This document shows positions 2,760-62,040 of a stretch of 64,000 nucleotides of DNA, piece by piece. Numbering within the stretch: position 1 is the first letter of the stretch; each line of letters starts with the position of its first letter. The position numbers and the translations under genes are program-made. The stretch is from contig OZ193909.1 in assembly GCA_964276515.1 (NCBI GenBank), forward strand, positions 1,178,001 to 1,242,000. Direction: 5' to 3'. This DNA is from Gordius albopunctatus. Taxonomy: Eukaryota. The notes beneath the pieces are model-generated. The model saw nothing but the letters and a program-made list of their open reading frames with translations. It did not search any database and was not told the DNA's origin.

Positions 2760-3189
2760 TAGAGCCGTGCACGGGCCGTCCGAGGCCCGACCCGGCCCGA
2801 GTTCGGCCCAGCCCGACGGGCTTTCGGGCCGGGCTCGGGCAAATTTTAAACATTGATCGTGCCTCGGGCTTGGATCGGGCCTGATGGGCCAGCCAGACCT
2901 AGCAGTGAGCGAGCCTTTTCTACAGCTGGGCGAGCTTACGAAGAGAGAAGCACTTCGTTAAAACCCGAGAAATTAGACTCCACTTTATTTATTTACCATA
3001 ATTATTCATATTTTAAATCACATAATATTCGCGATACGTAATATATTTATAAATAAATTTGTGAAATAAAATTGGTACAAATTTACATTTTTACAAAAGT
3101 CGGGCCGGGCTCGGGTCGGGCCTGAGTGAATAAACAAATGGGACTCGTGTCGGGCTCGGGCCGATAAAATTCAATTTTGCAGGGCTCTA
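2760..3189. mobile_element. Non-autonomous hAT MITE (430 bp)
   Basis: TIRs tagagccgtgca / tgcagggctcta; subterminal ggcccga/tcgggcc repeats; 8-bp TSD cttctaac (2752-2759) vs cttctgac (3190-3197). Confidence 0.85.
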
Positions 3190-3342
3190 CTTCTGACACC
3201 TCTAATTAGTTTAAAGGATATTTATTTGAAGGTTGATAATTTGTTTCTGAATGTATTATTCAAGGTTTTATAATGTATTTTCAAATGTGAATCATATATA
3301 TTTTCACATAATTTTTTCAAGGATTCTACAATATGCCTGGGG

Positions 3343-11800: not shown

Positions 11801-12200
11801 CTAACCAGAACTACAATCCTCTGACCCTCGCCGAACACCGCAAAACGGTAAAATACCAGGCCCTCCTACCCTCTAATAATCTTTACCCCTATCGTTGCCT
11901 CATGTTCTGGGACTTTTGGTCCTGCCGCCATCAAGCTTTTTAAAGATATCAGCCGTCGCTGTACGCCCTCTAAATATTCCACAAATTTTTTACTTAAACA
12001 AAAAATTGGTATTTTAATAGCAAAGTACAATTTTAAATCCATGGCCGACAGCTTGCCACTTTTATTAGATGATACATGCGACGCTTTTTAATTTTTTATT
12101 TTTATTTTGTTTTATTCCCACTCTTATATTTTTCGAATTTTAACACTTAGTTTTTTATAACGTTCTTACATTCAAATAAACAATACATACATTAAAAAAA
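8860..12200 (+). mobile_element. CRE-clade-like non-LTR retrotransposon (RT + restriction-like endonuclease), disabled
   Basis: Broken ORF 9253-12091 with N-terminal CxxC..HG..C, VRPIAI, KLDFANAFN, GIQQCDPLSP, WYLDD, QASLP..GGLG, RH, and a degenerate RPD/D..K..KY endonuclease. AATAAA and poly(A) at ~12175-12200. Candidate TSD agtataaag at 8851-8859 and 12201-12209. Confidence 0.85.
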
Positions 12201-12229: not shown

Positions 12230-15200
12230 TGTAATGTATGCAAATACTATCTACCTAATTGGCATGACCTCGAGCGTTCGAATTGAAACGCAATGTTAAT
12301 TGATTGTTAATTGGTTGTAAATCTAATGGCTATTTAAGCGTGTTATTATGATTACAATAGTCACTTGTTTCTTTTATGTTACCTAATAAACTAGATACGT
12401 TATAATGGCGACGAGGATTTAGAAACCCTTGGACCTTAAACTCAACCTCGTGTAGAAGACGCTCCCTACCTCGTTGAACTTAAATAATTTAGTATCCATA
12501 TTATTTTCAGATGGACATCAAACCGGAGACGAATTTTTCTTGCGATTACTCAAAGGAATTAAAGGATTCAATTCTGTATAATCCAAGTAATTCGATTGAT
12601 GACTATTTATTTAATATTGAGCTCTTATTCAAGTTGAGAGATATCACGAGAGAAAGGCGAAAAACTTTGTTACTCACTTACGTAGGTTTTAACAATCTAA
12701 CAAAAATAAGAGACTTTTTATATCCAAAATTAGTAGACGAAACTAATTACGATGAGATAATTAAAGCCCTTAGGAGTATATTCGCCAATAAGTTTTCTAT
12801 TTACCACCATAGAGAACAGTTTTATAAGGCAAGTAGAAATAACGAAACTATTATTGAATTTAGTATTCGGTTGAAATTTCTTTGGAAAAACTGTAAATTT
12901 GGAAATAATCTAGACGAGGTATTAAAGGACATATTTGTCCTAGGATGTAACTTACCAAGACTTAACATTGAGTTAAGAGCTAAGTATCCGAGAGGTAACA
13001 TAAGTTTCGAAGAAACAGTTAATCTAGCATTGGCGTTAGATTCGGTAGAACACGAAACATCGGGGGCTGTTGAAGTAAACAAGGTTAAGCAGTCGTTTAA
13101 TAACTTCAACAATAAAGATGTACATTTTCATAAATTTAGCACATTTAGGAAAAAGCCACCCCTTAAATGTTATCGGTGTGGGAAACCAAACCATATAGCA
13201 AAAAATTGTAGAACGGGAATACGTTATCAGTTATCAACCACGACTCCGATCATCACACCAAAGCGCACATCAACGTACGCATTAACGATGTGCCCTATGA
13301 AATGATCTTCGACACGGGTGCGGCATGTAGCGTAATTGATGAAATAACGTGGTCTGGAATCGGGAAGCCTAAACTTTACCAAGCTCCGAAGATATACGGC
13401 TATGGTAGAACGGCTATTGCAACACTTGGTAAAACCAAAGTGAAGGTGGACGTTGGTGGTGTGACAAAGTATTTAGATATTTATATCATCAAAGGTAAAG
13501 GTTCAGCAATATTTGGTATGCCATTTATCTCAAAATTTAACTTAACTCTACCAAAGTCGGTTTGCCTAAACTCTATCATTGAAATACCTTCAAATGTACA
13601 TTTAATTAATAGTGAAGGCATAACAGCGAGTGAGGATAAGATTCTAAAGATTAAAAGTTTTAAAACACCCGAAAACAAAAAGGAACTTCGTTCTTTCCTT
13701 GGGTTGGTAAACTATTTAGAAACTTTTATTCCCAACCTTCAGATAAATTGCGCTCCTTTATACAAATTAACTTCCATAAATACAAAATGGGTTAGGGGCG
13801 ACTTAGAAAAATTAACTTTTGAAAAAGTTAAAACTACAATCTCAAACAGAAAAACTATAGTGCCTTATCAAAAAGAATTGCCTATCATAATTTCAATCGA
13901 CGCGTCAGATTTAGGTTTAGGAACAGTTATAGCGCATAAGTTTTCCTCTGGCCAAGAAAAACCTATTGCCTACGCCTCTCATTCCCTAAATTCCGCCGAG
14001 AAAAATTACTCCGTCATCGACAGAGAGGCATCGGCAGTAATTTATGCAATAAACTTCAATATGATTATGATATAAAATACATCCCAGGGAAATCTAATCA
14101 GTGTGCTGATGCACTTTCTCGGTTATGCCCAAAGGATTCACCTCATAATTTAAACATAGATAATGACATACGAAGAATTAAATTACAATTAATCGATGAT
14201 TTGACTTTGAATACAAAAAATATTGTAGAGGAAACAATAAAAGATAATGTACTAAAAGAAGTTATAGAGCAATTTAAAAATAGATGGCAAGGCTCTTCAA
14301 ATAACGATAACGTACGAAAATACCTGCAATTAAGAAATTACATTTCTTTCGAAAATAATCTTTTATTTTATAAAGATCGACTTATAATTCCGGAAAAATT
14401 AAGGCCAGATATTCTTAAAATTCTACATGATGTTCATCCGGGAATCGTGGCTATGAAGTCATTAGGGAGATACTATGTTTACTGTAATAATATTGACGTA
14501 GACATAGAAAAATACGTTAATACCTGTAAAAATTGCCAAGAAGAACGACCAAACATTAAAGAGGTACCCCTATACGCTTGGAACGTCCCTAACAAGCCTT
14601 GGGAACGGGTCCACATAGACTTAGCGGGACCCATCAATAAGAAGTATTGGTTAGTGTGCATTGATGCTTTTACAAAATGGCCCGAAGTAATGGTGCTAGG
14701 CGAGATAAACTCAACAAAAATTATCCTTTTGCACGTTTTGGGTTACCTAGATATATTTTCAGTGACAATGGCCCACAATTTAAATCTACGTAATTTAAAA
14801 TTTTTTGTAAAAACAATGGCGTAGTTCAATTTACGGGACCGCCCTACCACCCCAAAACTAATGGTTTAGCCGAGAGATATATTAGAACTATTAAAAGTAA
14901 GTTCTATGCGAATAAAAAGTCGGGGGTAAATGACTCGTTAAACTTACTACAAGTATTAATGAGCATGCGTAGTAGTCAAAACGTGACTACAGGTATTAGC
15001 CCGGCTGAGGCGATGTTCAATCGAAGGATTCGTACGACGCTAGACCAGCTCAGAAGAACGACTCGCGACAAGGTTGAAGAATCAATCTGGAAACAAAGGT
15101 ACTATAAAAACCGATGGACCCAAGAAAGATTCTTCGAACCCGAGCAGCAGGTGTGGGTACATAATGACACAAGTCCGGGATGGAGGGAAGGACTTGTAGA

Positions 15201-15565
15201 AGCCCGAACAAGTTCGACTACGTATGACGTTAATATAGACGGAAATACAAGAAGGAAACACGGAGATCAGTTACGGGAAAGAAAAACGATTGACCAGGGT
15301 GCGGTGTCCGAGCGAAACATTCTAGAACACAAAAGGGTATCCAAACCACCTGATCGATACGATGGAGGGCAACTTTAAAAGGGGGAATAATGTAATGTAT
15401 GCAAATACTATCTACCTAATTGGCATGACCTCGAGCGTTCGAATTGAAACGCAATGTTAATTGATTGTTAATTGGTTGTAAATCGAATGGCTATTTAAAC
15501 GTGTTATTATGATTACAATAGTCACTTGTTTCTTTTATGTTACCTAATAAACTAGATACGTTATA
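12230..15565 (+). mobile_element. Gypsy (Mag-like) LTR retrotransposon with RT core deleted
   Basis: 175-bp LTRs 12230-12404 and 15391-15565 (2 mismatches seen); 5-bp TSD ataag; PBS tggcgacgagga; PPT aaaagggggaataa. Gag with CCHC knuckle (12511-13305), protease DTGA, RNase H DAS..G.G, integrase H-H-C-C and fragmented core. Confidence 0.95.
12406..12418 (+). promoter_or_regulatory. Primer-binding site, complementary to tRNA-Ser(GCU) 3' end
   Basis: tggcgacgaggat directly after the 5' LTR. Its reverse complement ATCCTCGTCGCCA matches the eukaryotic tRNA-Ser(GCU) 3' end as I recall it. Confidence 0.8.
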
Positions 15566-18402: not shown

Positions 18403-21400
18403 CTACAAAGGGGTAGGGGGGAAGGGAAGGAGAAATAGAGAAGTGTAGACACCTTCACAACACCATCCTTTTTAAAATAAATCCATCCGGGGCAAGACAA
18501 ATGAGATAGCGCAACCGGTCAGCACGACCTCTTGATTGTTTAGAAATCGAGAGCTCCTCGGACGAGGTAGTTGGGCTCGATGTCTTTCCTCCATTCTCCC
18601 GCCTTGCACTTCACTTCACCCTATTGTTCCCCACGCTGGTCCATATTTGCAGACTGGCGTACTACGTTCGACTCAACTGCCGAATCCGGTGGAGCCACCA
18701 TTACAGGAGAAAGCAATAAAGCCTCCTCTTCCTGTAACGACAACGTTTCCACCTGACAGACAATCGTTGCCTCACCTGGCGCTACCACACTCTGTTGCGA
18801 CGCCACCACGGACGACCGTATCAATGTACTGTCACCCTGCAGCGCTACCGTCCCAACAACGTTCGCACCCGCCACTATCTACCGTGCCTACGGCATTACC
18901 ACCCCCCGGCGGTATCTGTGGGTTACATCTCAGCCCACGATGCCGACGATGACACCCATGACACCACCTCCGTGTAACACGACGTCGCCTGCCGCCATTC
19001 GCCGCCGGTGGGGCAGCTTCCGCGCCCCTCCGTACCTTGCGCCCAGCGGCTACGCCGCGTTGCGGATTCTCTTGAATCCTCGCTATCGGGATCCTCACTA
19101 TCGGGGCGACGTTACGAGCCGCTCCGCCACGTCGACCCATATTCACAAATCTTTCACCCCCAGGTCGGATCTCTCTCCTCGCCTGAGGGTAGATTTGTTC
19201 ATGGAAGTTGACCATGTGGGGCACACCGTCTGCACCCACCACAAACGACACGTGTAAATTGCTTGGGGCGTACAGTGGATCGATCGCCTGAACCACAACT
19301 CGTACTCGGCACCACGAAGCAATTATATCCATCTAATATAAATAAAAACATTCGACATTATAACATATCCATATTAATATTTTATTCAAAACACGGCCGC
19401 AATTGCTCTTTATGCCTCATAGCATGGTTATTTGCAGCCGTAAACTCCACGTCGTAAGCTTTAGAGCCCACGCGGGATTTAACTACCGCTTCGAGCCATT
19501 TTTCAGACCCGCCATAACCCCGGGCCCAAACTGCCTCATTAACCCGAAACCGGCCAATGTCAGATACACGAGATGTCAACCCGCTATCTACGAACACATC
19601 GATCGGTATTCGCGGTATCCTATTTAAAAAAACCTTACTAACCGGCGCGCGACACGGGAAACGAGGGGAAGCATTGTGCAACAACATGTACATCCAAATG
19701 ACTTCTTTCTCCACCTTCTAGTTTTTTAACCATCGTTTAACTATCGCCACATGTCGCTCAGCCAGCCCGTTAGAACTAGGATGATAGGGAGGCGTTAATA
19801 CGTGACGTATGCCCCACCTATCGCAAAACGCTTTAAACTCGGCACTAGTAAACGCGGTACCATTATCTGACACCACGCACTTCGGTATGACAAAAGCGCC
19901 CATTAATTTTTCCAAAAAAACAATTACGCTTTTAGTAGATAGTTTCGACACCCGCTCGAATTCAACCCAACTCGATGTCGCATCCACCAACAAAAGATAT
20001 TGCTTAGAGTCAAAATCAAAAAAATCAAGGTGCACTCGATCCCACACATTATGTGCCTGAGGCCACCTCGCCTTTCTATCATGCCTGGGCATACTCGCAT
20101 TCTTGTTACATGCAACGCATTTACGCCCATACATGCTTATATCTTTTCCCATCTTAGGCCACCAAACATATCTACGCGCCAAAACCTTCATTTTAGCCGT
20201 CCCAATATGTCCAGCATGCAATAAATTCAGAACCTGAGGACGTAACACTCGTGGAATCACTATGCGTTCACCCCGCAGAATGATACCGTTCTCAAAACAG
20301 AGTTCGTTCCTCACCCCGCGGTAACCCACAGGAATCTCCTCGAGCGTCTCGCCGTTAATCAGGCATCTTGTAACTCGACTCAACTCCTCATCTTTACTAA
20401 CCTCCTCTTTAAGGTTAACTGATGGGAAAGTTTCCGTTACAATATTGACCAAAAAATTATCACCTTCTAATTCCTCCTCAGGTAAGGTACCATTATCCTC
20501 ACCTAAGCGCGACAACGTATCAGGTAAATAATTCGTTGCCCTCTTTTTATACTCTAAGGTTACGTTAAAATTCCCCAAAAACAACAACCATTTCTGTAAC
20601 CTAGGGCTAAGCAACAAACTACTGTTACACTTCGCGAACAGAGGAATTAGCGGTTTATGATCCGTAAAAACTTTAAAATCTCGACCAATAAGATACTCAC
20701 GGTACTTTATTAACGCAAAAACCACGGCAAGAGCCTCCTTCTCGATAACTGAATAATTAAGCTCCGCCGCCGTTAATTTACGCGAGAAAAATAGTATTGG
20801 CCGTTCTACGCCCATAACAATATGAAAGAGCATGCCACCTATACCGCTATTCGATGCGTCTACCGCTAGACCTATTGGCAGGTCACGATTAAAACACACC
20901 AAAACAGGATCGCTTCCTAACAAGTTCTTTAACTTATCGAAAGCTAACTGCTCCTTTTCGGCCCAAACAAAACGCACATTACTCTGCGTCAGTCTATGCA
21001 AGGGAGCCGCCACCTCCGAACAATGTGGTATAAACTTGCGATAATAATTAACCGACCCCATGAAAGCCAAAACCTCTTTTTTACTAACCGGGGCCCGTAT
21101 ATTCTTAATCGCAGCCACCTTACTACCCAGAGGTCTAATTCTCCCACATGCGATAACATGCCCTAAAAAAGTAACTTCGGTAACCCCAATCATGCACTTC
21201 TTCCTGGTTAAACGTAATCCTCTCTCCTGGACGCGGTTCAGTACCGATTCTAGACGCAAATCATGCTCTTGCATTGACGCGCCCACAATCAGCACATCAT
21301 CCAGGTAAAAGAACACGCCGTTCTAACCCTGGAAAACCGAGGCCATCTTCTTTTGGAAAACAGACGCCGAAATACTCAAGCCAAACGGCAAACGATTAAA

Positions 21401-22040
21401 CGTAAACAACCCCAAAGGAGTATTTATCGTCATTAACCGTGCCGATCGAGCATTTAATCTGATCTGCAAATATGTCGATCTTAAATCAAGTTTTGAAAAA
21501 TAACATGCGTTACTCAGGTTAGCTAAAATCTCCTCAACCCGCGGAATTGGGTACTTAATTTCCACCAACCACGGATTAAGTGTAACCCGGAAATCTACAC
21601 ACAGACGAAGCGAACCGTCGCTCTTCTTAACCGGAACCAGAGGGGTCGCCCACTCACTATAATCAACGGGCGAAACTATCCCCTGATCAACCCAGTCCCG
21701 AAGCACGGCATTAACTTCGTCCTGCCAAATAAACGGAATACGCCTATTCGGGCAAAACTTAGGACAGGCACCTCGTTTAAGCAGCACATCGTACTCATAC
21801 CCCTTTAAACATCCTAAACCTTCCGAAAAAACTTCGGCGTAGCGCGTCACTAAATTACGCAAATTAGATTGCCATTCGCCCAGGTCGCCCAAACACTTAC
21901 ACTCACCCGAAGGTGTCACACCTGCAGCACCCGAAGGTGCCAAGCCCGCAGGCGTCCCGATGTTTATCATCGCACACGACTTAGTCGCTTGCTTGGTACT
22001 CGGAGGCTCAATATTACATATCATCGCACTCATATATGTA
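18403..22040 (-). mobile_element. Gypsy (Mag-like) pol fragment: RT-RNase H-integrase, extra 3' ORF, PPT and ~55 bp of 3' LTR; no gag, protease or 5' LTR
   Basis: One reading frame ~22040-19382 broken only by two in-frame TAGs (21323, 19718): LRLCVDFR, LPFGL, YLDD, DAS..GIG, EKEALA, TDHKPL, H-H-C-C, VSDNG, NGLAER. Purine-rich tract then tgtgaagg at 18459. Confidence 0.92.
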
Positions 22041-22479
22041 GACATGCAACTGAATATAGAATAACCGAATATGCCAGGTGATTTAGTGTATTTATAAACA
22101 TTAACAACTTAAAGTGTACTGGTGGATATTTAAATATGCTATCCATATTATTAATTACTATTAAGCTATTATTATATGTAGACATGGATAGAATCCTCTA
22201 CTTTTACAATGTTTTAGTGTATTTATAATCGTTAGCAACTTAAAACATACTTGTAAATACATAAATATATATTAACATTAGACTAATATCAAATGTAGAC
22301 ACGCTATATTATATGCAATTGTTTATAAAATAATAGCTTATTCATTTTATGCGTTTAATTATTAATATTTTTTATACTAGCTTTTTGTATTAATTAAATA
22401 TTTAAAATTTGAATATTAGTTTTATTGTCTACTCTTGAAATTGGATTTTTTTGAATAGCTTAATTTTTGAATAAGAATC
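22040..22479 (-). repeat. Right arm of long inverted repeat
   Basis: Reverse complement of 17764-~18200; ends gaataagaatc, matching gattcttattc. Confidence 0.9.
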
Positions 22480-24934
22480 AAACCCCTAGATATTACCGAA
22501 ATACTAGTTTACTCTAAAAATAAGAGTGAAGCAGATTGACCCCCTCCCCCCATTAAAGGGAAAGTTAACCTCTACCCCTCTACAAAAATGGTCTTATTTA
22601 TAACCAGTAATTCATCTACGAACTCACTTCTAATATATTAACAATATACAAAACACAACTACTATTAAGTTTTAAAATTCGTTACTAAATCCGTCTCATT
22701 CCACCCCAACTTTTAATCCCTTATACTCAAATTAAAAGGATCCTAAAATTGGCTTCTCTCAATACTCAAACCTTAAGAGAACCAGGAACGCTACAGAGCC
22801 TTACTTTATTTGCCTCCCATCACAGAATTCATATTCTCTGTGTTCAACAAACAAGATATTCACATCGCAAAGTTCTCCCCGTTAACCACTATAATTGCTA
22901 TTGCACGGAATGCGGCCTTGAGTCTGCATCAGGGGTAGCCATTTTTATAAAAAAGGAACTCAAAGTGATTAGCATCGACTATGTTAACAACAGATTATTA
23001 ATCATTCACTTAAAAATAAAAAAATCGTTGTTTATCAATTTTTAACATATACGCTCCCCCCTCTTCCAAAAATTCTCAATCGATGGAATCCCTCCTCCAC
23101 AACATCAAAGATAAATTTAACACTAAACACCTTAAAATCCTCGTCGGTGACTTCAATGCTTCCGTCCAGCGCACACTGGGGGATAATAAATTAATAATTG
23201 GCCCAAACTCAATTGGACCGACTAACCGAAACGGTAAACTGCTTAAAAAATTCTGCTGTAAACATAAACTAAAGATAACCTCAACCTTTTCCGACCTTCC
23301 TCTGGATAACCTAATCACATACCAAAAGAATGAAAATCACCGAGGTACCCAAATTGATCATATAATAGGCCAACTAAGAAACCACAAAATGATAAAGAAC
23401 TTCCACACCTTTCAGCCTCTAATAAAAACAGATCACTTCGTCATCTCAGCTGATCTCTTTATTAATCCCTCCTCTCTCCACACGTCTAAAAAACTTAAAA
23501 AATACCCATCTCGAGCAAACATAATCAGAGACATCTCTCAACTTGAGTCCAGATTACAAACAGACTCGAAGGCACTTGGCGATCTTGCCCCCCTCTCAGT
23601 CAATGACCACAATGACACCTTAGCAAAGTTTTTCCCTCCATCCCAGAATGACCATCTCCATGTCAACATTAAGTCCTGGTTCTCCATCGATACCATTAAT
23701 CTACTCGAGTCCCGGTATAAAGTCTTTAAGGATAAGACACTTAGAAATAAAAAAGCATGCGTCCAACATCTCACTAAAAAGATTAAAGCGGCAATAAAAA
23801 AGGACAAGGCTAATTACTTATCAAGCAAACTAAATGAAGCAGAATCTGCTGCTCGCACAAACAGTACACACACCCTTTACAAAGTGCTCAGGAACATCAC
23901 CGCAAAATTTTCAGACAAATATAACTACAACACAATACAAAACAAACATAGCTCCAACGATTCCTTGATCCAAACGGAGGCTTGGGAGAGCCACTTTAGT
24001 TCCATTCTAGATCGCCCTTATTCAATCCCCTGTTCCGACATATTCCTTGAATTCATTAACAACTTCAAAACACCCTCCACCCCTTCTATCAGTGTTGAAC
24101 CACCCTCCTTAAATGAAATAAAATACGTGTTAAAATCCCTCAAACTTCATAAAGCTCCCGATGCAGAAAAAATCACAGCGGAAGCCCTTAAAGCTGATTA
24201 CTCCCTGTATAGCAAACTATTGCATCAACTCTTCACTAAAATCTGGCTACAAGAGATCATCCCCCGCTCTTGGTCTACTGGTCTACTTAGTAAAACCTAT
24301 AAAAAAGGAGACCCATCCCTTCCCGATAATTATAGAGGGATCACAATTATAAATAACATTTCCAAGGTTTTTATAAAATTAATATATAGGAGGATATATC
24401 CATTCATTGACGATAATTTAAAAAGTAACCAAGCCGGCTTCCGTAAGTCCAAAACCACAATTGAACACATCCTTACCCTCAAAAATATTATTGACATCTC
24501 ATCTAAATCTAAATCTCCTTTAGTCCTAACATTTGTCGACATTCATAAAGCTTTAGACTCCCTATCCCACCTTTACATATGGGAATCTTTATGTCTACTA
24601 GGAATCCCCAAAAAAATTATTAGACTTATCTTCTTTCTGTACAAAGACATGAAAGTGGTCATAAAACATCTACACCACCGCTCAAACCCAATCCAAGTCA
24701 ATTTAGGAGTTAGACAGGGATGTCCATTATCTCCTCTACTATTCATCACGGCAATGGATCTCATAATTAGGAGATCCACACTTCCTTACGACGGTATCCA
24801 CATGAACGGCATCAAAGTGTCTTCACTGCTATTTGCTGACGATTTATGCATCATATCGGCTTCAACTCTCAAAACTCAGAACTTTGCCGATAGATTCGTC
24901 TTAGAATCCAAGAAAGCCGGTTTAACAATTAACC

Positions 24935-27920
24935 CAGAGTTGTTAAACGCACCTCAAAAACCGGTGCGCGCACTCGCACTCGCACTTTGAGGAAAATCCG
25001 GTGCGGGCACTCGCACTCGCACCAGTTTTAACAAAGGTGCGCGCACTCGCACTCGCACCAGTATTAAAGGTGCGCGCACTCGCACCCGCACCTAAAATTT
25101 TATTGCACTATAACAAAACAAAATATAGAGCAATGTTCAATGCATAACCTTTATTTTGTCTAATGCAAAAAACTAATGAATTTATTATAATTATAAAAAT
25201 AATCGATATACAATAAAATAAAATAATCAACATAGCATTTTATTCACATTCATGAGTAAAAGCATTTCAAGGTGATTATCCGTCAAGTTACCCCTTCTTT
25301 CACTTAATATTGCCTTGGCTTTGCTGAACATACGTTCTATAGGAGCACTTGAAGGTATAGGAGTATTGTATTTGATGAACAAATTCTTGAGTGAAGGAAA
25401 TTTTTGGAATATATCCAAAGTTGTATCAGTGGATTTGAGAAAATCCTGAAAAGTTGTTTTATGTTCTTTATTATTTATTTCGAAAAAATCATCAAAGTCT
25501 TTTCGTTCATAGACTTCTTTTTCCTCCACGTCTGGCGTGATTTGACTTTCAATTAATCGAATAATTCTTTTTAATATAGGTTTGTTTTCATCTTGATAGC
25601 ACCAACTGAAATTTGTTTTAAATAAAGGGCTGAGAATTGCTGCTGCAATAACATTATCGTCATATAAATTTGGGAATCTTTTTAAATACAAAGAATAATT
25701 TAAAGTTTATTATATATATAAAACCTTCTTTCAATCCCTTGTATAATTGCATTCACTAATGGTTGGCATATATCTAAATCACACAACCTTTTTAATTTCT
25801 TTATTAGTACTGTTATTGTTGGTAGAAGATATCCTAATTCAACGGTTTTATCTCCTTCCAAAATGCGCAAAGATTTAGCTAATGGTTCCATAACCTATAA
25901 ATTAATATGTAAATTTATAAACAGCTATTATATCTGCTTAAAATGTAAAACTTACTAAAGAATACTCATGAATAAATACTCTTTCTTCTTCTTTGAACCT
26001 AGATAAGCCTATTTCATCAAACAGATCATAGAAATCTGATTTTTTGGTATCAAGCAATTTATTTAATAAATTCACAGCCTCATAATAACTATTCCACCTA
26101 GTTTTATTTGGGGTAATTAAATATATTCCAATTTTCTCTTTATATATATCAGCCAACCGAGTGGACATATTTTGCTTATTCCACAAATTTTGACATTTGT
26201 TAAATGTTGAAAGAAATATTTTTTTAAAATTGTTATTCAAAAATGCTTCCTTGATATCAACACTGGCTACCAAATTAAGACAATGACAAGCACAGCGCCC
26301 ATGTTTTGGCAAATGTTCTGATTCTTCTTCAGGACAATTACTTATTATATCATCAATATCCACACTCTCTAAATCTTCATCTTGTTCCTGAACATCAGAT
26401 TGTATTGTCTCTTCTTCATACACCCTATAACATATGCTTTATTTTTTTAAGAAAAAAATAAATATTACCTGAAGGCTTTTACAAAATTGGATCCATTGTC
26501 GGTAATGGTTTGAACAACTTTGTTGTGAATTTTGAATTGCTTATGTACATCAATGATGTTCTTAGCAATCACATCATAAGTTTGCTTTCCTTGTATCCTT
26601 TTAAGACACAATCCAATTGATTTTCTCTCTAAGTTGCTTTGATTAATCCAGTGTGCTGTTAAGCCTAAATAAGCTCTAAATAAATTAGAGTATAAAAATA
26701 TTATACTTTTTATAAATCATTACCTTCTACCAGTGCTCCAGCAGTCAGCTGTTGTACAAATAAACTCAGCACTATGCATTTCTTCTTTGATTTTAGCAAT
26801 TAACTTATTGAACCTACAAGTGATTCTAGATGTTAATGTCTGTCGACACATGACATCAACAGGAGATTTTGAGAAAGCACTTAGTAGCTTTCTAAAGGAT
26901 GGATTATCCACAATTGAAAGAGGCTGAATTGTGTTGATGACATAATTCACCAAGGCTTCTTCCCGACTTACCTCTTTAGTAAAGTTTACAATATTCTGGT
27001 TAGATTTATCTAAGACTTTCTTTTTCTTATTGTCATTTCTAAGCTTTTGTAATGTACTATTATGAAATCTCTAAATTTTTTTATAAAACAAGTAACAAGA
27101 TTACCTTTAGATGCCTAGTCAAATTGAAACAAGATCTAGAAGAAGTCTTGAGTTTGGCATTGCATAAAAGACATTGCACCTCAAAATTAAGTGTATTATG
27201 CTGATTATCTTTAAGTTTAAACATATTAGCATATTTTGGAAATGGCAAAATTGTCATGCATGATGTGCTTGCTATATTTATGCTTGATTCTTCTATTTCC
27301 ATAACTCACTATCATATTAAAGTGTTATATATAAGCAGTGAGAAAAGAAAAGAGTAAAAAATTGGATAAGGAGTTATGATAACAACACAATAAATAATAT
27401 AAATTAATAATTAAAATTAATTAACTAATTTAATATATTTTAATGAAAATTAATTGTAATTAGATCATTATATGTGATCAAACTTACGATAGCAAATATA
27501 GGTTCAAAAATCAAAAGTGTAAAGATTAATCGTTGATTGATAAAGTAAATACGTGAATAATGTGAAATTGAAATATCGCGGTTAGATTATTTTTATTGTC
27601 TATCGATAGTAACCAATTTCCCGCTTTGTTATCTTCTCCACCAGGAACATAGATGTATGTTATATATATATAGTAAATCAGTAGAAATTTAATTTGTGAA
27701 ATATGCGATATAATACAATTTCGAATAAATTAATAAATTGTAAAACTCTTAATGTGCGCAAAACAGGAGCGCAATTGCGCACCCGCACCGACTTAATCAG
27801 GTGCGCGCACCCGCACTCGCTCTTCGTTATAAAAAAGTGCGCGCACCAGCACGTCGCACCGCAAATCCGGTGCGCGCACCCGGTGCGCGCTCTTGATGTG
27901 CGCGCTCCTTAACAACTCTG
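24935..27920 (-). mobile_element. Complete hAT (Ac-like) DNA transposon, 2986 bp
   Basis: TIRs cagagttgttaa / ttaacaactctg; perfect 8-bp TSD aattaacc (24927-24934, 27921-27928); gtgcgcgcac subterminal repeats at both ends. Confidence 0.95.
25227..27302 (-). CDS. hAT transposase, 6 exons, predicted 613 aa, apparently intact
   Basis: Exons 27302-27105, 27070-26724, 26675-26469, 26424-25956, 25894-25725, 25677-25227 (1842 nt, phases consistent, GT-AG). BED finger CLLC..HLKRFH, TADCWS, TDNGSN, CACH, TRWNS, PSSAPIERMFS. Confidence 0.9.
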
Positions 27921-44929: not shown

Positions 44930-45315
44930 CTCTAAACCCAAACTTCAATAAAGACTAGGACCCTTAATTCTCAAATGTAGGCAATATGAAGCAGAATAAT
45001 ATTTTTTTAATTTAGATTTTGTTTAATATACAAACTCTTTTAGATTTAAAGTAGAGATGCAGCGATACCACTATTTTGTGCCGATACCAGCCGATATTTA
45101 AGATTTTTTTGCCGATACCGATACTTATAATAAAACAATTAAAAAAATTGTATACTAAAAAATATAGGCAAATTAAATATTATAAATCTTATGTTCAACT
45201 TAACAACAATTGTTAGTTGTCCTATTTTCTCCGAAAGAAGCCTTCTTCTCCTAATAGAATCTATCTCACTCATCATACTGAATAATGATTCTGATGGAAC
45301 TGTTGTTGGTGGTGG

Positions 45316-45516
45316 TAGAGTTGCTAAATTGCTAACTTTCTTCAAACTCCAGACGCGAGCACGCACACTGAGTTGCTTAATATGCGCGTTAGCACAATAT
45401 GTGCCCGTTGTCCGGTCCTAGGAAAAACAGTAGCATATAAAAATGCTCGAGGGCCGAGCAGAAACTCGAGCAGATGATAGCTAGAGTTGAAGAAAGTTAG
45501 CAATTTAACAACTCTA
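45316..45516. mobile_element. 201-bp hAT MITE inserted in the outer hAT transposase remnant
   Basis: ~35-bp TIRs tagagttg(c/t)taaattgctaactttcttcaa; perfect TSD ggtggtgg (45308-45315, 45517-45524). Removing it restores the PPPTTVPSE reading. Confidence 0.88.
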
Positions 45517-45845
45517 GGTGGTGGGCCTAGATATCTTCTCGCTAATTTATCACTTTCATTTTTAAGAAAACTGCGTAATTCGATTGGATGTCTAGTTTTT
45601 AAATGTTTCCTTAGATTTGAAGTATAAAAAGAATGTTTGTCTTTGCCCCCACAACTTATTTTAGCTTTGCATAATTCACCACAGATTACAATTTCTTCAT
45701 CTGCTGACACAACAAAATAACTCCATAGTGTATCTAAAGAATTCATCTAAGGCTTAATCTTATATAATATTTTTAAAATAAAACAATATTTACTTAAAAG
45801 CGCAGTTATTCGGAACAGATGGTCAATGAGTTTATTATACTCCAC

Positions 45846-48531
45846 TAGGGATGGATATTTTCCCCGGGAAATTTGCTTAAGGGAAAATTCATGGGAAAAA
45901 ACGGGAATTAACGGGAAAAAACAAGAAATTAAGGGGAAATAACGAGCAATTGAGAAGGGAGAGTCCCAATCGGGATATCCCCCTAACTCTTGTTTTATTT
46001 ATTAATATTTTCCTCATGTAAATATTATAAAGGCGTTATATGAAATCAATATATATATGGTGATCAAAAAACGCGAGAAATTAACACACTAACGAGGGGC
46101 AGAGGTTAGGTAAGCGCCGAGTGGGGAAACGATATAGAGTAAAAGAGGGGTGATGAGATATAGTAAGTTTCTTAAACTCTTTTACGGTATTCGGGTTTAG
46201 CAAACTAGTTGGTGTTCTGGTGGTGTGTTGAGTTCGAGCGTACCCAGTGGATTATGCTACCCAATTGGAAGTCGTCGTAGAAGCTCTCTCGGGAAGGTCC
46301 ATCCGCCGGATTAGCGTCCGTTGAGACCCACTCAAGGTTTTGCTTGATCTTGATCATATTGTCTAAGCCCATCACCTCGCAAATCTTGGTGAACGCGTAC
46401 TCCAGGTGCGGCGCATGCGCGCTACCCTTCTTTATGATATAAAAGGCAGTACGGGAATCCGTCAAGATCTTGGGGTTGAGGCCCGGTGTATCGACCGCTG
46501 CTTTGATGTAGGCTAAAGGTATGGCAACCAGCTCGAGCAGGTTGATGGTGGGGATGAGGTCATGAACTGCGAAGATGGCAAGCGCATCACTCTTGGTAAT
46601 AGAGAGGACGGAGCCTCTGTAAAAAAGACCAATATGTGAGAGTGACGCATCTCCCGCAGTGAATCCGTTGGTGTCGTGGCGCATTTGGAACGGTGTTGAG
46701 AGGTGTCGTTGTATCATGAGAACTTTTCGGACCGTCCATTCAGTCCGGAATTCAATGGGGTCCGTGGCTAGTAGTATGTTATATGCAGGGGACGCGTATT
46801 TCGACCACCCGGTGAGCATGTAGATGTAATGGGTTAGGATGCCCAAACATGTCTGAGATACCAGAGGGTGTGGCTTGATACCTTCCAGTAGGAAGTGATT
46901 AAGGATTTGCACGGCTGCGTCGATCTTTTTAACGAATTTGGCGTTTACTCTGAGTGTGCGAGATTCCAAGTCCACGTGGATACCTAGGTAATCCATTTTA
47001 GTACGGGGAACCAAGCACGATTTGGCCTTGTTGATGGTTAGGTTCCAACACTTGGCGAGGTATAGGAATCGTCTGGTGTCAGCTAATACCATTGTGGATG
47101 AGGAACCATAGATAAGAATGTCATCCAAATATACATTGTATTTGGATTTCGTGATGGATTTTTTGCATAAGTCCAGCATTATTTGTTGGAGGACGAATGG
47201 GGAGAAACTCGCTCCCATGGGCAGTACTTTGTAAGCATATTTTCTTCTTCTGTACCTAAACCCAAAGAATTTTGCAGCGTCCGGAGCCAATGGAATCGAA
47301 AAGAATGCTGCTTTCATGTCGTAAAATTTATTAGTTAAACAATATAAAGAAGCAAATACAAGAAAATCATCCAATAGCTAATGCTAATTTTTCATCTAAT
47401 TTCTCTTGCTGAGTTTTTGGGTCATGCTATCAAAGTAGCTAATAATATTCGATGTTGATGGTTTTGGGTCACATGAAGCAGATGTATTTTGTATAGGGCA
47501 TTTTTCAAGCATTACCTCACAAATTGATGATTGTGGAGAGGGGGGCATTAAGAAAACTTCTTGAAAATTCTTTTCCTTTATAAAATCTGGTCACTTAGCT
47601 ATCTTTCTTATTTGAAGATAAATGCTTAGAAAAATGTTTCCAAATGTCAGATGTTTTTCTTGGCATCTATTAGTCAAAAAACTAATTAGTCAAAAAAATA
47701 AGTTTAATAATATTAAATTTTTACATTTATTGTTTTCAAAGGATTACAGATTATTTTTACCAGAATTGTGTGTAAATTCAGTTTAAATAAAATGTAGAAA
47801 TTTTAATTTAGTTAGATATAACAAATACTTCTATATCAAAAAACTAAATACTAACATAAAATAAATATCCATTGAAGATTACTTGATTTGAAGTTGGTAA
47901 AAATATTTTCACAGTTAATGGCAATAAAAATATAATAGATTTTGCTAAATATTTTAAATATTCAAGCATATGTAAATTTACGTGTTAATATAACTTAAAA
48001 GCTTATCTAGGATTATTGTAATAATTAATTTCAGTGTAGATTGCAAATTCTCTATTGTTAAATAACAAGTTGATATATTTTTTAAATATTACTTATACTT
48101 ACTATTAAGTTGGTATATAATATTTTCAGATTTAGAGTAAAATGGCAATATAAAATTTAAATGATTTTGCTAAACATTGAATTAAATTTACAAGCATGGT
48201 TTATTTACCTTATATGGAAAGAATTTTACACTAGAGAACTAATTGTTAATGTAACTATAAGGGTATATTGTTTTAACTGATTACTGAGATAATTAACTTT
48301 AGTGTAGATTGCAAAATCTTTTAAGTTAACAACTAGATGTTAATAGTATTTAAGCAAATTTTCACAAATTATAAATTAGGAAATATTTAAAATATTGGTT
48401 ACCACGAGGTAAATATGAAATTAAAGTAAATTAAAATAATATATAACTTAAATTAGATCATACATATTTGATTTAAAAATATATTTTTTAGGGGAATTTT
48501 CCCCGGGAAAATTCACATTGTGCCATCCCTA
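45846..48531 (-). mobile_element. Inner non-autonomous hAT element carrying an RT-RNase H segment
   Basis: TIRs tagggatgg / ccatcccta with subterminal ttccccgggaaa; perfect TSD tactccac (45838-45845, 48532-48539). Transposase N-terminal remnant MPRKTSDIWKHF...IISYFDSM...EKLDEKLALAI at 47666-47370. Confidence 0.88.
46205..47335 (-). CDS. 5'-truncated reverse transcriptase-RNase H, hepadnavirus/HEART-like or DIRS/Ngaro-like
   Basis: Uninterrupted frame: DMKAAFFSIPL, LPMGASFSPF, YLDD, INKAKS, YLG; RNase H GDAS, INLLEL, LTDS, WVSTDANPADGPSR. GC visibly higher than flanks. The first ~13 aa of the tracked ORF come from flanking hAT DNA. Confidence 0.85.
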   Translation of the reverse strand, partial: TNKFYDMKAAFFSIPLAPDAAKFFGFRYRRRKYAYKVLPMGASFSPFVLQQIMLDLCKKSITKSKYNVYLDDILIYGSSSTMVLADTRRFLYLAKCWNLTINKAKSCLVPRTKMDYLGIHVDLESRTLRVNAKFVKKIDAAVQILNHFLLEGIKPHPLVSQTCLGILTHYIYMLTGWSKYASPAYNILLATDPIEFRTEWTVRKVLMIQRHLSTPFQMRHDTNGFTAGDASLSHIGLFYRGSVLSITKSDALAIFAVHDLIPTINLLELVAIPLAYIKAAVDTPGLNPKILTDSRTAFYIIKKGSAHAPHLEYAFTKICEVMGLDNMIKIKQNLEWVSTDANPADGPSRESFYDDFQLGSIIHWVRSNSTHHQNTN

Positions 48532-49034
48532 TACTCCACATAGAAATATTTATCGCCAATCAAATGAAACAATTTTCAAAAAATTTAATAAGTCCTCTTC
48601 TATTTTTTAATGGTAGGAGATACTGTATAAATATTATTTTTTGAGTTTCATATTGAAAAAGGTATCGACTTGTTAATTGCCGATACTTGGTATCGGTGCA
48701 TCTCTAATTTAAAGGTTGGGCAACGCAGCCTCAGTCTATCCCAAAATGTATTATAATAAAAAGTTTTTCCCCCTTAAAACAACAAAACGAAGTTATACTA
48801 AAAAAGAATTTAGCCCGAAGAGTTTATGGAGCAAGAGAAGACCAGCTATCGACAAAGGTTTTAAAGTTAATTTTACAGATTACGAGTTGCTCTAATCAAA
48901 CCAAACTATTTATAAAGATCGTCGTCAAATACGATAAAGACTTGCCTGCATACGCGTATCAAGCATTGCAATTGTAATGATTTATTGAGAGGCAAAATCA
49001 TCATTTTAAGATATTAAAGCCATAATTTTAATAA

Positions 49035-49430
49035 CACTGGTCAACAAATAATGGACTTGTGAAATTAACCTGCAAACTATTTGCAGATTCCGGTAGAGTT
49101 TTTCACTGTGAGCACAAATATGTTTTTAGTTTTTGCCCAATACGTCAAGTTAATTTAAAAAGTAAAAGTGCCACGATAAAAAAATTGTAAATACATTCCT
49201 CTCCCCTATCTCTACGTATTAAATCTATTAAATAAAATTTTTACCGACTAATTTGCAAGTTATTGACGTTTGAAAAACGCTAAAATCGCGTTTTTGGCAA
49301 CTTTGACAGTGAATATTTAAAAAATTTGACGTATAGGTAAAAAACTAAAAACATATATTTGTGTTCACCGTGAAAAACTCTACCAGAATCTGCAAACAGT
49401 TTGCCGGTTAATTTTTCTTGTTGAACCATG
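49035..49430. mobile_element. MITE with ~110-130 bp TIRs (Tc1/mariner-like)
   Basis: aattaacc.gcaaact.tttgcagattc.ggtagagtttttcac...tacgtcaa is mirrored at ~49325-49415; ends cactggtcaacaa / ttgttgaaccatg|ta. Confidence 0.7.
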
Positions 49431-50188: not shown

Positions 50189-53100
50189 TCAAACGGGCGG
50201 TGGAATCGATGGCATCCCTGGGGGTGGGGGTGGTGGAATCAATGTCGCTAATGGAATATAAAACAAAATTCACTTTAATTAAAAATTTTATTAAATGGTT
50301 GAATTTTGAATCGTGTATTTATGGAAGGCTTTGGCTTTGATACTCATATTAGATTAATAATCAATCGCAATTTTAATTAAGATTTTAAACATCTTTTATT
50401 GCATTTTTCTATTTTAAAACTGTTCCGCTCCAAAATTTGCCTGTTAGTTAAGACTAAACATCAAAGCTTAAATTTGGCTTTAATACTTGATTTAGTTTGT
50501 TTTTAAAATTGCATCTTAAAAGTCATTTCCACGTGCTAGAATTAATACCTATAGAAAGCGGAGCTTGCCCCGCACCCCCCATAATTCCTGGGGGCGGTGG
50601 GGGTGGTGGTGCCAAATCGATGGAGGGTGGGGCCGCGGTAAGGCCGCTCGATGGTACATCACCTGTCGATTCGACCTCGATCGGTGTCGGATTGATGGGC
50701 ACAGGTTTGGGCTGAACTAGGCTAGAAACTGGAATTAATCCTCCTGAAGCGGATGAAGCGTTTTGCCCGCTCTCATTCTTGAACGCGAATTGAAGGTAAA
50801 ACTATTTGAAGGCGATCCCAAAATGAATCAAACAAAATTATACAATTTCCGCTGATCATAAACAATAATTTTATTTGTATATAGGATGATTAAGAACAAC
50901 ATCGAGTTTTTTTAAAAAGGGTTCTAAACTATAATCTTCTAAAGAGAACCAAGAAATGTTGGAATCTCTCAAGTTTGTCCTAACTTTGTACATGTTCGTA
51001 CATGAACGCAACCAAAGGGAGGTCTCTAAATCTTAAAATTAAAGTTATATTTTAATATAAAATTATGGTTAAAATTATCTGCTTTGCCTTTTCCTACATC
51101 ATTATTGCGCCCCCGGGCCCTCTATTTTAATCCTGCCGTATTCATCAGAATAAAAGATTATTATTACGATAAATAATGTTGAAATTGTTATATTTAATTT
51201 TTTTATAAATGACATGCAGATAGAATTTAAATTTAATTTTAGATCCGTAGAGATGAATATTTCACTAGATTCCCTTATTTCACGCACCTAAACCCGTGAA
51301 AGACTAATTCCAGACCACTCGCTTCGCCAAAAAAGCATATTTAACCTAAAGTTAACTTTCAGAATTTGAAGTAAGGTATCGGAGGGGGGTGGGCGTATGT
51401 ATGAATGCCCCAGCTGATAAACATATGATCGATTACTTGTTTAGCCTGGGAATTCCAAACGTACCAAAACTTTTTGTCGTGATACCCGAAGCCACCCACA
51501 GGTTTATCTACCTCCCGACTAGGCACTTTGAAGGCTATGGTCTCGTAGGGTTCGGCTGCGAACAGCAAATACTGCCATCTACGGTCTGGAGGTTCCACGT
51601 GCTGCTCGTAAGCCGACATAAAACGATGACGCGGTATTATGCCTGCGTTGATACATAGTCGAATAATATATGTATAAGCATTGAGTTGGCCGCCAGCCCC
51701 CAAATGACGGGAAATCGATTCAATGCGCAAAAACAGTTAAAAATTAAATAATTTTATGTTCCCCCCCCCCCCCCCCCGATTGAACTTTAGGAGTTTTGCA
51801 GCCTCCCTAATCCAAAACCTGGCTACCACTACAATTATTGGAAAATAAAGAGTTGGACACGGCGGAGAGACGGACGAACGGACCAACCAACAGCGATCCC
51901 ATAAATTGCATACGTAGCAATTAACACGTGTCTAGAGGCGGTAATAATCGGTCGGGCACGAAAACAATAATGGAATTTGGGCGACTCTGGCGAGGTGCAA
52001 AAAATTAGAGCCAGCGAGCGGAGGTCATGAGCCAGTCTATTTGGGAAAGAAAAGGCTTTTACGGAAGCAGCCATTAAAAACTCGTAGAAGAGTCCAAGGC
52101 AATTATTGGAATTCGGAAGATTAGGAGTCGGACAGAAGGGACAACTAAAAAGGAGCCCCAAAAATTGCATATATTAAAATTGATGAATCTGGATTCAATA
52201 ACTCTTCTTCACGTTAAGTCGATGACTGGCTCGTTGGTGGGGTGAGGTCGTCGAGCCTAAAAAGGGCTGGAATTGGTCAACCTTTGGTTTAACTAAGATC
52301 CTTAGAATTTGGACAAAGCGCCCAGTGGCGAACTAAAATGTAGGATCACTTTGAGGCCCCTTTCAATTTTTGTGATCATTAACCACAAAATCGAAGAAAG
52401 ATGAACCTAACATCATGGCAGCAATTAAAGTAAGACTAAAAACGATTGGCTTACTTTATTAACTTTATTTTTTGTGTGTGTGTGTGTGTGTAATCTCTTC
52501 TCCGTTAATTGTTGTTATAGCTGAAGATGGGTACTGAAGCAGAAATAGACCATTCCTTTCCCCCTTACTAATTTTATCAATCAGAACTCACCAGTTGTTA
52601 CCATCATATATACTTACAAAGGATTGACGATTAAATAACTTCATCCCATGAATATGAAGTTTGAATAGTTAGTCTATCAAAATAACCAAATTATGGGCAA
52701 TTTCTAAGTTTGGGCTGCTCGAGACCCTCCTTTCCCAATGGAATGTTAAATTAATGTCTCTTTTTTGCACAATTTGCTAGAATGTGTAATTTACATGAGG
52801 CAGAGCATAAGATGCAAACACTATACTAATAAGAGAAACAATTAATTAATTAAGCTCTAACTAATTTAATCAATACATTATAATAATGCATGGAATGAAA
52901 AGAGAAAATTTAGGGTTTAACTTAAGGCTCATCAATATCGAAACAATAAGCATTTGAATTAATCTTATACTTTGGGCTTAAAACAATTTCATCTGCTTAC
53001 AAAATTTGAGCACCCATTTCTTTACAATCATAATACTAATTAAGAACTACCAATTTTACAATGAAGGCAAAACTATTATTTTTTTATAAAAATTAATATA

Positions 53101-59834: not shown

Positions 59835-62040
59835 AATTCTCAGTAAAATATGTTCAGTATTTTATTAATTTGCTCATTAAAAAATTCAAAAATGCTCAGT
59901 AAATAATCTTAATATTGCTCAGTTATAAATCCAAAATTCTCAGTAAATAATCTTAATATTGCTCAGTTATAAATCCAAAATGCTCAGTAAATAATCTTAC
60001 TATTGCTCAGTTATAAATTTAAAATGCTCAGTATTTTCAAAAAAATGCTCAGTAATTTTAATAAATAATACTCAATCTATTTAGCACTAATATTTTGTAA
60101 AAATAAAGGTAAATTGAGTGTGTTGAAATGGAAATAGTTTATTTTGTCTAAATTAAATAGATTGGAGACCTGATTATTAAATTTTTAAAGGTTATAAAGT
60201 ATCTTAGTGTCTTGAATTTTTTCTCTTTAACTCCTCCCTTCTCTCCCTTCAAATAAATAAATAAATAGCAAGTTAAAAAGCTATGAAAAGTAATGACAAA
60301 TGCTCTGCCTTTCCCTTCTTAAATTTTACATGTTTATAATGTATTTTTTTGCAAAATAAAATTTTTATTTGAATATAATCACAAATATGTACAAATAGAG
60401 ATTAATAATAATAATTAACAATTTAAAATGAAAAATAGACAAATTTTGCTGGAGACAACTTTCATTTCGAAAACCTAAAATTTGTTATATAATCTTATTC
60501 TTCTTCTTTATCAGTTATTTGGTCCCACATTGGTGGGGTTTGTTTTGATGAGTCTCTTCCATCTTGACCGGGTTAGTGCCATGTCTTGACTAATCTCTTT
60601 AGTTTCCATAACTTTATCGACTTGCCTTTTCCACGTGACACGGGGTCGTCCTCTTCCTCTCTTCCCCGGTATTTTCATGTCTAGCACTTTTCGATTTACG
60701 TCATCCGGGTCCCTTCTTGGTATATGCCCATACCACCTTAGCCGATTTTCGTTAATCATGTCCGCCATAGGTTGAATACTCATTTTTGTCATGAGAAAGT
60801 CATTCGTCATATGTTCGAGCTTAGTATACCCCAAGCTCCACCGTATCATTCTCATCTCCGTGGCTTGTAATAGCTTTCCTTCCGTGGTGTTTAATGCCCA
60901 TGTTTCACTTCCATAGAGTAACACCGGTCTTACGATGTATTTGTAAGCTTTCCTCTTCAACCATATTGGCATTTTCTTGTCCCACATTTCACCGGATATA
61001 CTTCGCCATTTAAGCCATCCTTTTTGAATCCGGGCATTGATTTCAGTTGCGCAACCTCTCTCTTGATGTAGCATAGAGCCGAGGTAAGTAAACCTGTCTA
61101 CTTTTGGGTACTTTAGGTGGTCATCCATCGATGGGGTGCTTGTACCGTTCATTTCCATGTATACCGTTTTTCGATCGTTGACCTTTAAACCATATCCAGC
61201 TAAGCGCTTTGACCACTTTTATGCTTCTTCGAATACCTTCTCCCTTGTTTCCTCGCATAGTACTATATCATCGGCATATAGCATACACCATGGCGATGGC
61301 TTTTGAAAGTCCCTCGTTATCGTGTCTATAATTATATTAAATAAAAAGGGACTTAAAGCAGAGCCTTGATGTAATCCAATATTAAACCAAAAATGTTTAG
61401 AGTCTCCAACTGTCGTCCTAACGCAAGAGTTTGAAGCTTCATAGATATTAAAATTTGTTATATAATCAATGTTAAATAATCTAAACTTACCATTACTGAA
61501 CAATAAAGGCTGATTTAGTCTTTGAGGGTCTGCCTCGCTTTCTTTTTTGCCCTATAGGCACACTTTTGGTTTCTTTAGGCGGTTGGCAAAATTTAAGTTT
61601 AATTGAATATATTGTTTATAAAAAGATGGACAATTGCACTTGCCTTGAAACCATTTTTCGCAATCGTTTGGTAATTCACATAGCCAAAGCTTAAATTTCT
61701 TTTCTTTAACAAATTTTGTAAAACTTAATTCTTTTATAAACAAAAATAAACCATTTATCAGCTAAGCACTTTGACTACATGGGAAACACACAAGACTCTT
61801 ACTTAGATGCTTCGTGTTCAAATCTCGCTCTTGAATTTTATTTTAAAACTAGTTTTTAGTAACTTTGCATAAATAAAAAAATTACTGAGCAAGATTTGAA
61901 TAAATAACTGAACAAATAAATTTATTACTGAATAAATAATTAAATAACTGAGCATTAAATTATTTACTGAGCGTTTAATTATTCAACTGAGCATTTGAAT
62001 ATTCTACTGAGGAAAATTGAATTAAGTACTGAGCAAAATA
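59835..62040 (-). mobile_element. MULE/Foldback-like element remnant with repeat-rich inverted arms
   Basis: Left arm rich in tgctcagta (including ~44-bp tandem x3); right arm rich in tactgagca. SWIM-like CNCPSFYKQYI and QKRKRGRPSKTKSAF at ~61495-61650. Ends and TSD not resolved. Confidence 0.6.
60495..61448 (-). mobile_element. 5'-truncated RTE LINE
   Basis: GLHQGSALSP, LYADD, YLGS, LLYGSETW, RLRWYGH, RGRGRP; (AAG)n-like tail; 19-bp TSD taaaatttgttatataatc at 60476-60494 and 61449-61467. Confidence 0.92.

Follow-up and report, generated by a model that had tools for sequence, protein, structure and literature searches.

Nested elements and the retroelement insert

The window (the whole 64-kb stretch of DNA that was analysed) contains a retroelement insert lodged in a nest of two hAT-type elements, which lies between a LIM-domain gene and the SF3A2 gene in AT-rich, transposon-rich DNA. 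The outer hAT-type element (45052-48706, ends TAGAGATGC...GCATCTCTA) is flanked by a perfect 8-bp duplication, ATTTAAAG, at 45044 and 48707. The inner, non-autonomous hAT-type element (45846-48531; 2.7 kb; ends TAGGGATGG...CCATCCCTA), which carries the insert, has a perfect 8-bp duplication of its own, TACTCCAC, at 45838 and 48532. Three public runs (X1, X2 and X3) contain parts of the stretch, no RNA run being among those listed, and the best of them may derive from the source sample. The empty site of the inner element is found in X2 and X3 as a joint from 45835 to 48530. Both nested elements, which are absent from the sequence-only reading of this DNA, have the anatomy of hAT transposons and presumably belong to that family. 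A relic BED zinc finger on the minus strand (45345-45746; Pfam zf-BED, E 1.9e-6) likely derives from the transposase of the outer element.

The surroundings contain further repeats. A small element at 45316-45516, inside the outer hAT-type element, has inverted ends of 30 bp (97%) and very high depth in X1 and X2, and is likely a high-copy MITE. A second foldback element, with 66-bp arms that are 89% complementary, occupies 49062-49414. SF3A2 (Prp11) exons are found on the minus strand at 51359-51736 and 50523-50801; their translation includes additional residues in front of KFW, which could come from a short intron that is retained or from an insertion in this lineage. Elsewhere in the window there are two broken Ty3/gypsy elements that are oppositely oriented (12493-15375, apparently without most of the RT core, and 19385-22108), what we take to be a broken non-LTR retrotransposon (9326-11940, plus strand) that encodes RT and, C-terminally, a restriction-like endonuclease region and, presumably, RTE-like LINE pieces with a spliced or broken hAT transposase (22689-24987, 25230-27070 and 60514-61551).

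The retroelement insert occupies 45950-47321 on the minus strand (1372 bp). Its limits are given by the junctions and by an empty-site joint, a single X1 contig (n=1) that joins 45947 to 47322 within the hAT sequence and skips the insert; the span of 45951-47339 proposed earlier has been corrected accordingly. Neither a target-site duplication nor poly(A) is seen at the inspected junctions. The earlier description of the insert as a 5'-truncated RT-RNase H piece is borne out, and it has no connection domain.

A minus-strand ORF of 390 codons, counted from stop to stop, covers 46205-47377; its first 18-19 codons are flanking hAT sequence or run across the junction. The element-derived frame begins at the Asp of RT motif A (47320) and ends at the stop codon at 46205-46207. 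The intact coding part (46208-47320, minus strand) comprises RT from motif A to motif E, the thumb/tether and RNase H, and its 371 codons confirm the previous estimate of about 375 open codons with the acidic residues of both domains. The chance of 371 open codons at the local base composition is about 3e-8, and GC content is 0.48 within the ORF versus about 0.3 in the surroundings. The five other frames over the ORF have no stop-free stretch above 66 codons, in agreement with the reported absence of an overlapping ORF. The stop codon comes 27 codons past NPADGPSR, and only 255 non-coding bases follow it before the insert ends; therefore no integrase or recombinase, as the sequence-only reading had also stated, lies downstream of RT-RNase H.

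The 3' non-coding end (45950-46204, minus strand) includes a TATA-like TATATATA run at about 46050-46057, upstream of AATAAA at 46003-45998, and, at its terminus, a hairpin (fold z -2.1, equalled by 5 of 200 shuffles). One X1 contig (n=1) joins 46190 back to 45950, so that the final 241 bp occur twice in a row, 13 letters apart; the last ~240 bp could be considered a candidate terminal repeat. Only one copy of this unit is present within the 64-kb window, the unit has no TG...CA ends, and an Rfam search over 45000-48800 gave no match at E<=1. Doubled read depth over the unit was not accepted as proving a repeat, the depth bins being inconsistent.

RVT_1 (E 1.4e-18) is the sole Pfam family matched by the ORF, with no RNase H family above threshold in the scan of the insert. 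The RT catalytic motif C (YLDD) is located at 47120-47131 (minus strand; translation and alignments). The RNase H domain (46288-46660, minus strand) is delimited by alignments and the predicted model; its acidic residues near 46651 (D of DAS), 46534 (E), 46459 (D) and 46303 (D of NPAD) align with those of DIRS-type and hepadnaviral RNase H. In the AlphaFold model (pLDDT 75.6), the RT palm, the helices of the thumb and the fold of RNase H are recognisable. The RTs matched in PDB, by sequence or by fold, are all of Ty3, foamy, caulimo or retroviral type, and an ESM Atlas search gave unnamed RT/RNase H clusters. In the Foldseek search of BFVD, an unnamed 634-aa protein, perhaps a nackednavirus P judging by its length, ranks first, and HBV P is found at ranks 3, 4, 10 and 11 (TM-scores 0.47-0.54 for these proteins, <=0.39 for the listed retro- and caulimoviruses); BFVD is a viral library in which recombinase retrotransposons are not expected, so this ranking cannot weigh transposons.

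Copies and relatives of the insert

Unique flanks have a depth of 209 in X1 and 637 in X2, and ORF bins reach 991-5503 and 7397-29403, respectively; read depth is not copy number, and these values are read only as several to a few tens of copies. Contigs of X1 and X2 show loose ends at 45949/45950 and 47321. Five X1 contigs continue past 47321 in sequence unlike hAT (median 255 letters), and thus longer 5' versions exist. Five X2 contigs end at 45950 with flanks that disagree (agreement 0.55) and are unlike hAT, which means that the 3' end is fixed. Third codon positions account for 24 of the 32 listed variant sites in the ORF (p 2e-6; the list leaves aside 243 and 140 further variant places), a bias that points to selection on the protein. 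These data indicate a multi-copy retroelement family with many diverged copies under purifying selection.

Many diverged copies with a fixed 3' end characterize a mobile family, and a one-off viral fossil is ruled out by the number of copies in the public runs. These features speak for a transposon and against the suggested endogenised virus fragment. LINE-type truncation is also ruled out, because the junctions carry neither a poly(A)/simple-repeat tail nor a target duplication; the best matches of the ORF are RTs of the DIRS/LTR branch, not LINE-type RT.

The best homologue is an uncharacterised protein of the horsehair worm Gordionus sp. (LOC135926043, P0002; 37% identity over 92% of the query), which belongs to the same family (support 100/99) and keeps the RT N-terminus missing from the window copy. 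A HMMER search against 1.84 billion representatives gave five further family pieces (P0140, P0141, P0142, P0147 and P0153). In P0002 and P0142 the RT N-terminus is DIRS-like and is preceded by only ~10-40 residues as annotated, while P0140, P0141 and P0153 have C-terminal tails that are acidic, similar to the ends of HEART-like ORFs. A search of P0002, P0140 and P0142, whose gene models may be incomplete, for the terminal protein (PF00242) gave no match; the DHBV control matches at 1.5e-167. No recombinase is seen in any family member, the available family sequences being without the upstream part.

The next-ranking matches are DIRS-type proteins, followed by unnamed RT-RNase H ORFs with acidic ends; a methyltransferase-type motif occurs in 39 of 144 matches (DIRS-type). 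No hepadnavirus was detected among the best 150 matches by motif or Pfam (30 and 15 matches scanned). In a third homologue search, the best 120 of 364 matches are all hepadnaviral, HBV dominating. The labels DIRS, Ngaro-like, VIPER-like and HEART-like were assigned here by motifs, Pfam Dam matches, the gene order of the metagenomic contig L022 and comparison with HEART by eye.

The best match outside the family is P0143 (E 2e-35), for which no viral locus was found. About 20 of the best 150 matches are RT-RNase H ORFs that lack a methyltransferase and cluster with hepadnaviruses (89/96). The unnamed HEART-like RT-RNase H ORFs are P0143, P0145, P0148, P0151, P0160, P0162, P0170, P0172, P0180, P0189, P0193, P0197, P0215, P0219, P0233, P0238, P0250, P0259, P0265 and P0284, and 18 of the 20 were included in the 51-row tree from which that support derives. 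Many of them have acidic, proline-rich N-termini of ~190-280 aa without methyltransferase or terminal protein. Several resemble, by eye, HEART rows in the accessible part of data set S6 of PMC12691608. The P0143-P0284 set may represent a HEART-like radiation much larger than described.

L022 (L022:1-3994) encodes gag-like, integrase-like (phrog_1, E 0.019) and RT/RNase H products in that order. This is the VIPER/TATE order, with a tyrosine-integrase-like ORF upstream of RT; the contig ends overlap, one peptide being encoded at both, as would be expected of a circle or a tandem array. Since a recombinase-like ORF can thus precede RT, the lack of a downstream recombinase in the insert is compatible with a recombinase element. 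Three metagenomic RT/RNase H proteins with YIDN (P0003, P0006 and P0007) match the hepadnaviral PF00336 yet group with VIPER-like rows; PF00336 alone is therefore no sign of a hepadnavirus.

Locus searches gave no family member in viral contigs (one gypsy match), in prokaryote genomes or among five metagenomic loci (two gypsy, the unplaced RT fragments L019 and L020, and L022). Motif scans for nackednavirus and proto-nackednavirus found none. The openly accessible literature, outside subscription journals and Repbase, gave no description of this retroelement family in horsehair worms, and a term search of data set S4 of PMC12691608 returned no Gordionus, VIPER or TATE. The lineage, earlier called possibly undescribed in its host group, is apparently so.

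Motif comparisons and phylogenetic placement

Sixteen hepadnavirus genomes formed the hepadnaviral comparison set. NPADGPSR, which had been read as avihepadnaviral, is indeed exact in DHBV, but it is equally exact in P0003, P0011, P0014, P0018, the gypsy protein P0016 and one methyltransferase-bearing DIRS protein, two Ngaro-like proteins being among the carriers, and NPADxP[ST]R occurs in 6 of the 39 methyltransferase-bearing matches. The proposed hepadnaviral likeness of LPMGASFSPF is favoured by the extended pattern PMGxxxSP[FY] (0 of 39 methyltransferase-bearing matches); PMG alone is found at motif B in 4 of these 39 DIRS proteins. Motif B and the thumb motifs align with hepadnaviral P. 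The short RT-RNase H link is common to DIRS and VIPER-like elements and fails as a hepadnaviral marker; like NPADGPSR, it was rejected because it is present in non-hepadnaviral elements. DAS and INLLEL had also been described as DIRS/Ngaro-like; DAS and xINxxE (31 of the 39) match DIRS-type proteins, unlike hepadnaviruses.

The insert has 158-159 aa from motif C to the RNase H Asp, an RNase H span of 113-114 aa and DAS. The corresponding tether, RNase H span and motif are 157-170 aa, 105-110 aa and DAS (11/12) in DIRS-type proteins; 159-182 aa, 100-106 aa and DAS (4/4) in VIPER-like rows; and 149-153 aa, 85-86 aa and DAT (5/5) in hepadnaviruses. HEART-like rows with the RNase H Asp have a tether of 131-148 aa in 17 of 18 cases (P0143, 158), and most have DAT. 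Profile alignment of RT-RNase H by hhalign scores 197 versus DIRS-type and 110 versus hepadnaviral. Mean RT identity of the insert is 30-32% to HEART-like groups, 29% to DIRS, ~27% to VIPER-like rows and 23%, the lowest value, to hepadnaviruses; thumb scores lean slightly to HEART-like groups. A specific affinity to hepadnaviruses or nackednaviruses is unsupported by RNase H length, DAS, xINxxE and the spread of the motifs.

In Ngaro elements, the recombinase ORF is located downstream of RT/RNase H, and in VIPER/TATE-like elements the tyrosine recombinase is located upstream. The insert lacks the downstream recombinase of Ngaro, as well as the methyltransferase after RNase H and the overlapping or downstream recombinase of DIRS1-like and PAT elements. 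Also absent is the short RNase H of Blubervirales (85-86 aa with DAT and a PIH/DIH-type motif; compared with hepadnaviruses only). The VIPER/TATE-like feature, RT/RNase H as the last ORF without methyltransferase, is present.

The sequences in the trees did not include real HEART, nackednavirus or proto-nackednavirus sequences. The 30-row tree (without the incomplete L019, P0017 and P0005) has the family branching deeply, at a multifurcation that also includes hepadnaviruses and VIPER-like rows; the family and hepadnaviruses are grouped at 76/80. RT-only and RNase H-only trees leave the family without placement. FastTree with 172 rows, from which nine short or mis-cut rows and any below 200 aa were left out, places the family beside VIPER-like rows (93, unstarred) and outside the DIRS crown (96); a quick tree also places it beside VIPER-like rows (83). 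In the careful 51-row tree, hand-picked from the 172 rows, the family (100/99) has no supported sister (polytomy) and is not included in the clade of hepadnaviruses and HEART-like groups (89/96). In a further careful tree the family again falls in a polytomy and is not part of hepadnaviruses plus group A.

AU tests reject none of the placements: p is 0.43 (51 rows) and 0.23 (32 rows) for the family with hepadnaviruses, 0.38 for hepadnaviruses plus HEART-like ORFs, 0.18 for VIPER-like rows and 0.09 for DIRS (32 rows, LG+G4). Forcing the family beside VIPER-like rows has the lowest likelihood cost of four placements (1.9 units). The trees set the family apart as a separate deep lineage, neither in the DIRS crown nor among hepadnaviruses and HEART-like ORFs, but no placement is rejected by AU. 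The RT+RNase H trees agree with the earlier view that it does not fall inside DIRS and support its assignment to the neighbourhood of DIRS, VIPER, HEART and hepadnaviruses.

Interpretation and comparison with known systems

The insert likely belongs to an unusual recombinase-type retrotransposon rather than to a hepatitis-B-like virus. The reading we tentatively prefer, with a probability of roughly 0.45, is a divergent tyrosine-recombinase retrotransposon of VIPER/Ngaro grade, with RT/RNase H as the last gene and the recombinase upstream. The full element would be transcribed whole, and its reverse transcription could be aided by split terminal repeats, the last 240 bp possibly being one of them. 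Circularisation would follow, and then integration by the upstream recombinase without target duplication. The 5' part of the window copy was likely lost as it inserted or at a later time, and this copy would be unable to move alone. According to PMC6681497, the B repeats of VIPER measure 219-308 bp in T. cruzi and C. fasciculata, and its RNase H groups with hepadnaviruses; VIPER A repeats are 83-414 bp versus only 13 letters between the tandem units here (one contig).

An alternative that is nearly as probable as this reading is a HEART-grade element near the base of HEART plus Blubervirales, consisting of RT-RNase H only, with an acidic low-complexity tail and without recombinase, integrase or terminal protein, which would integrate by an unknown route. 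It is favoured by the best non-family match (P0143), by the ~20 matches that group with hepadnaviruses (89/96), by the slight lean of RT identity (30-32%) and thumb scores, by the acidic tails of P0140, P0141 and P0153 and by the AU value of 0.38; the mobilisation mechanism of HEART is described as unresolved in the accessible part of PMC12440569. The family nevertheless falls outside the HEART-like clade, represented by proxies chosen by eye, in the FastTree, quick and 51-row trees, and its tether of 158-159 aa exceeds that of 17 of the 18 HEART-like rows, most of which have DAT. More doubtful is an undescribed animal lineage, present here and in horsehair worms, that encodes only a hepadnavirus-like RT-RNase H, has no integrase, recombinase or terminal protein, moves with precise ends and stands between recombinase retrotransposons and HEART/Blubervirales.

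Spread by hAT transposition or circle recombination instead of an own integrase, as a tandem-repeat or LTR-like retroelement or as passive cargo, is improbable. The position of the copy in hAT elements whose ends are intact and whose 8-bp duplications are perfect, and the single tandem join of the 3' unit, would fit it, but other copies end at 45950 and run past 47321 in non-hAT sequence, and the 3' unit has no TG...CA ends. An endogenised fragment of a non-enveloped, nackedna- or proto-nackedna-like virus (Blubervirales) of an invertebrate is very unlikely. The top TM-scores of the 634-aa protein and HBV P, the alignment of motif B and thumb motifs with hepadnaviral P, the TATA run upstream of AATAAA near the 3' end and the AU values of 0.23-0.43, which give no rejection, speak for it. 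Against it are the restriction of BFVD to viruses, where transposons are not expected, the lowest RT identity of all groups (23%), the absence of PF00242 matches in the family (the DHBV control does match), the DIRS-like RT N-terminus after only ~10-40 annotated residues in P0002 and P0142, the lack of an overlapping ORF and the fixed 3' end in many flanks, which is unlike random viral fragments. The insert is no evidence for a new invertebrate hepatitis-B-like virus.

In its mixed characters this apparently undescribed retroelement lineage can be compared with four groups of known systems. Hepadna-, nackedna- and proto-nackednaviruses share with the insert the PMG motif B, NPADGPSR, the thumb G..P.Y and the lack of a connection domain. 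In contrast to hepadnaviruses, no terminal protein or overlapping frame is seen, RNase H is 27 aa longer with DAS instead of DAT, RT identity is 23%, and the element is present in many copies that share a fixed end. DIRS1-like, PAT and Ngaro elements share DAS, xINxxE, the tether length, the RT N-terminal helix and the best profile score; the insert differs in having no methyltransferase or 3' recombinase and in its position outside the DIRS crown.

HEART elements, reportedly described by Gong and Han in 2018, are like the insert in being RT-RNase H elements of invertebrate genomes with an SPF-type motif B and no terminal protein detected. HEART-like ORFs mostly have a shorter tether and RNase H, and the insert lies outside their clade; the Ixodes rows of HEART in the accessible part of PMC12691608 S6 have YIDN/HLDN, and the insert has YLDD. 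A HEART-grade assignment, if true, would provide a recently mobile HEART-grade element. A recombinase-less lineage, if true, would be a recently mobile intermediate toward hepatitis B viruses, whose intact copies make HEART-type mobility testable.

VIPER/TATE elements, as presented in the accessible text of PMC6681497, have RT-RNase H without connection or methyltransferase domain and a hepadna-like RNase H end; a shared RNase H origin of VIPER-type transposons and hepadnaviruses is suggested there. The insert is also similar in tether and RNase H length, in a possible terminal repeat of similar size and in weak tree adjacency. It differs in that VIPER/TATE elements are described from kinetoplastids, that the recombinase, gag and A-B-A-B repeats are not seen here and that RT identity is ~27%. 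The VIPER-grade reading, if true, would extend VIPER-type architecture into animals.
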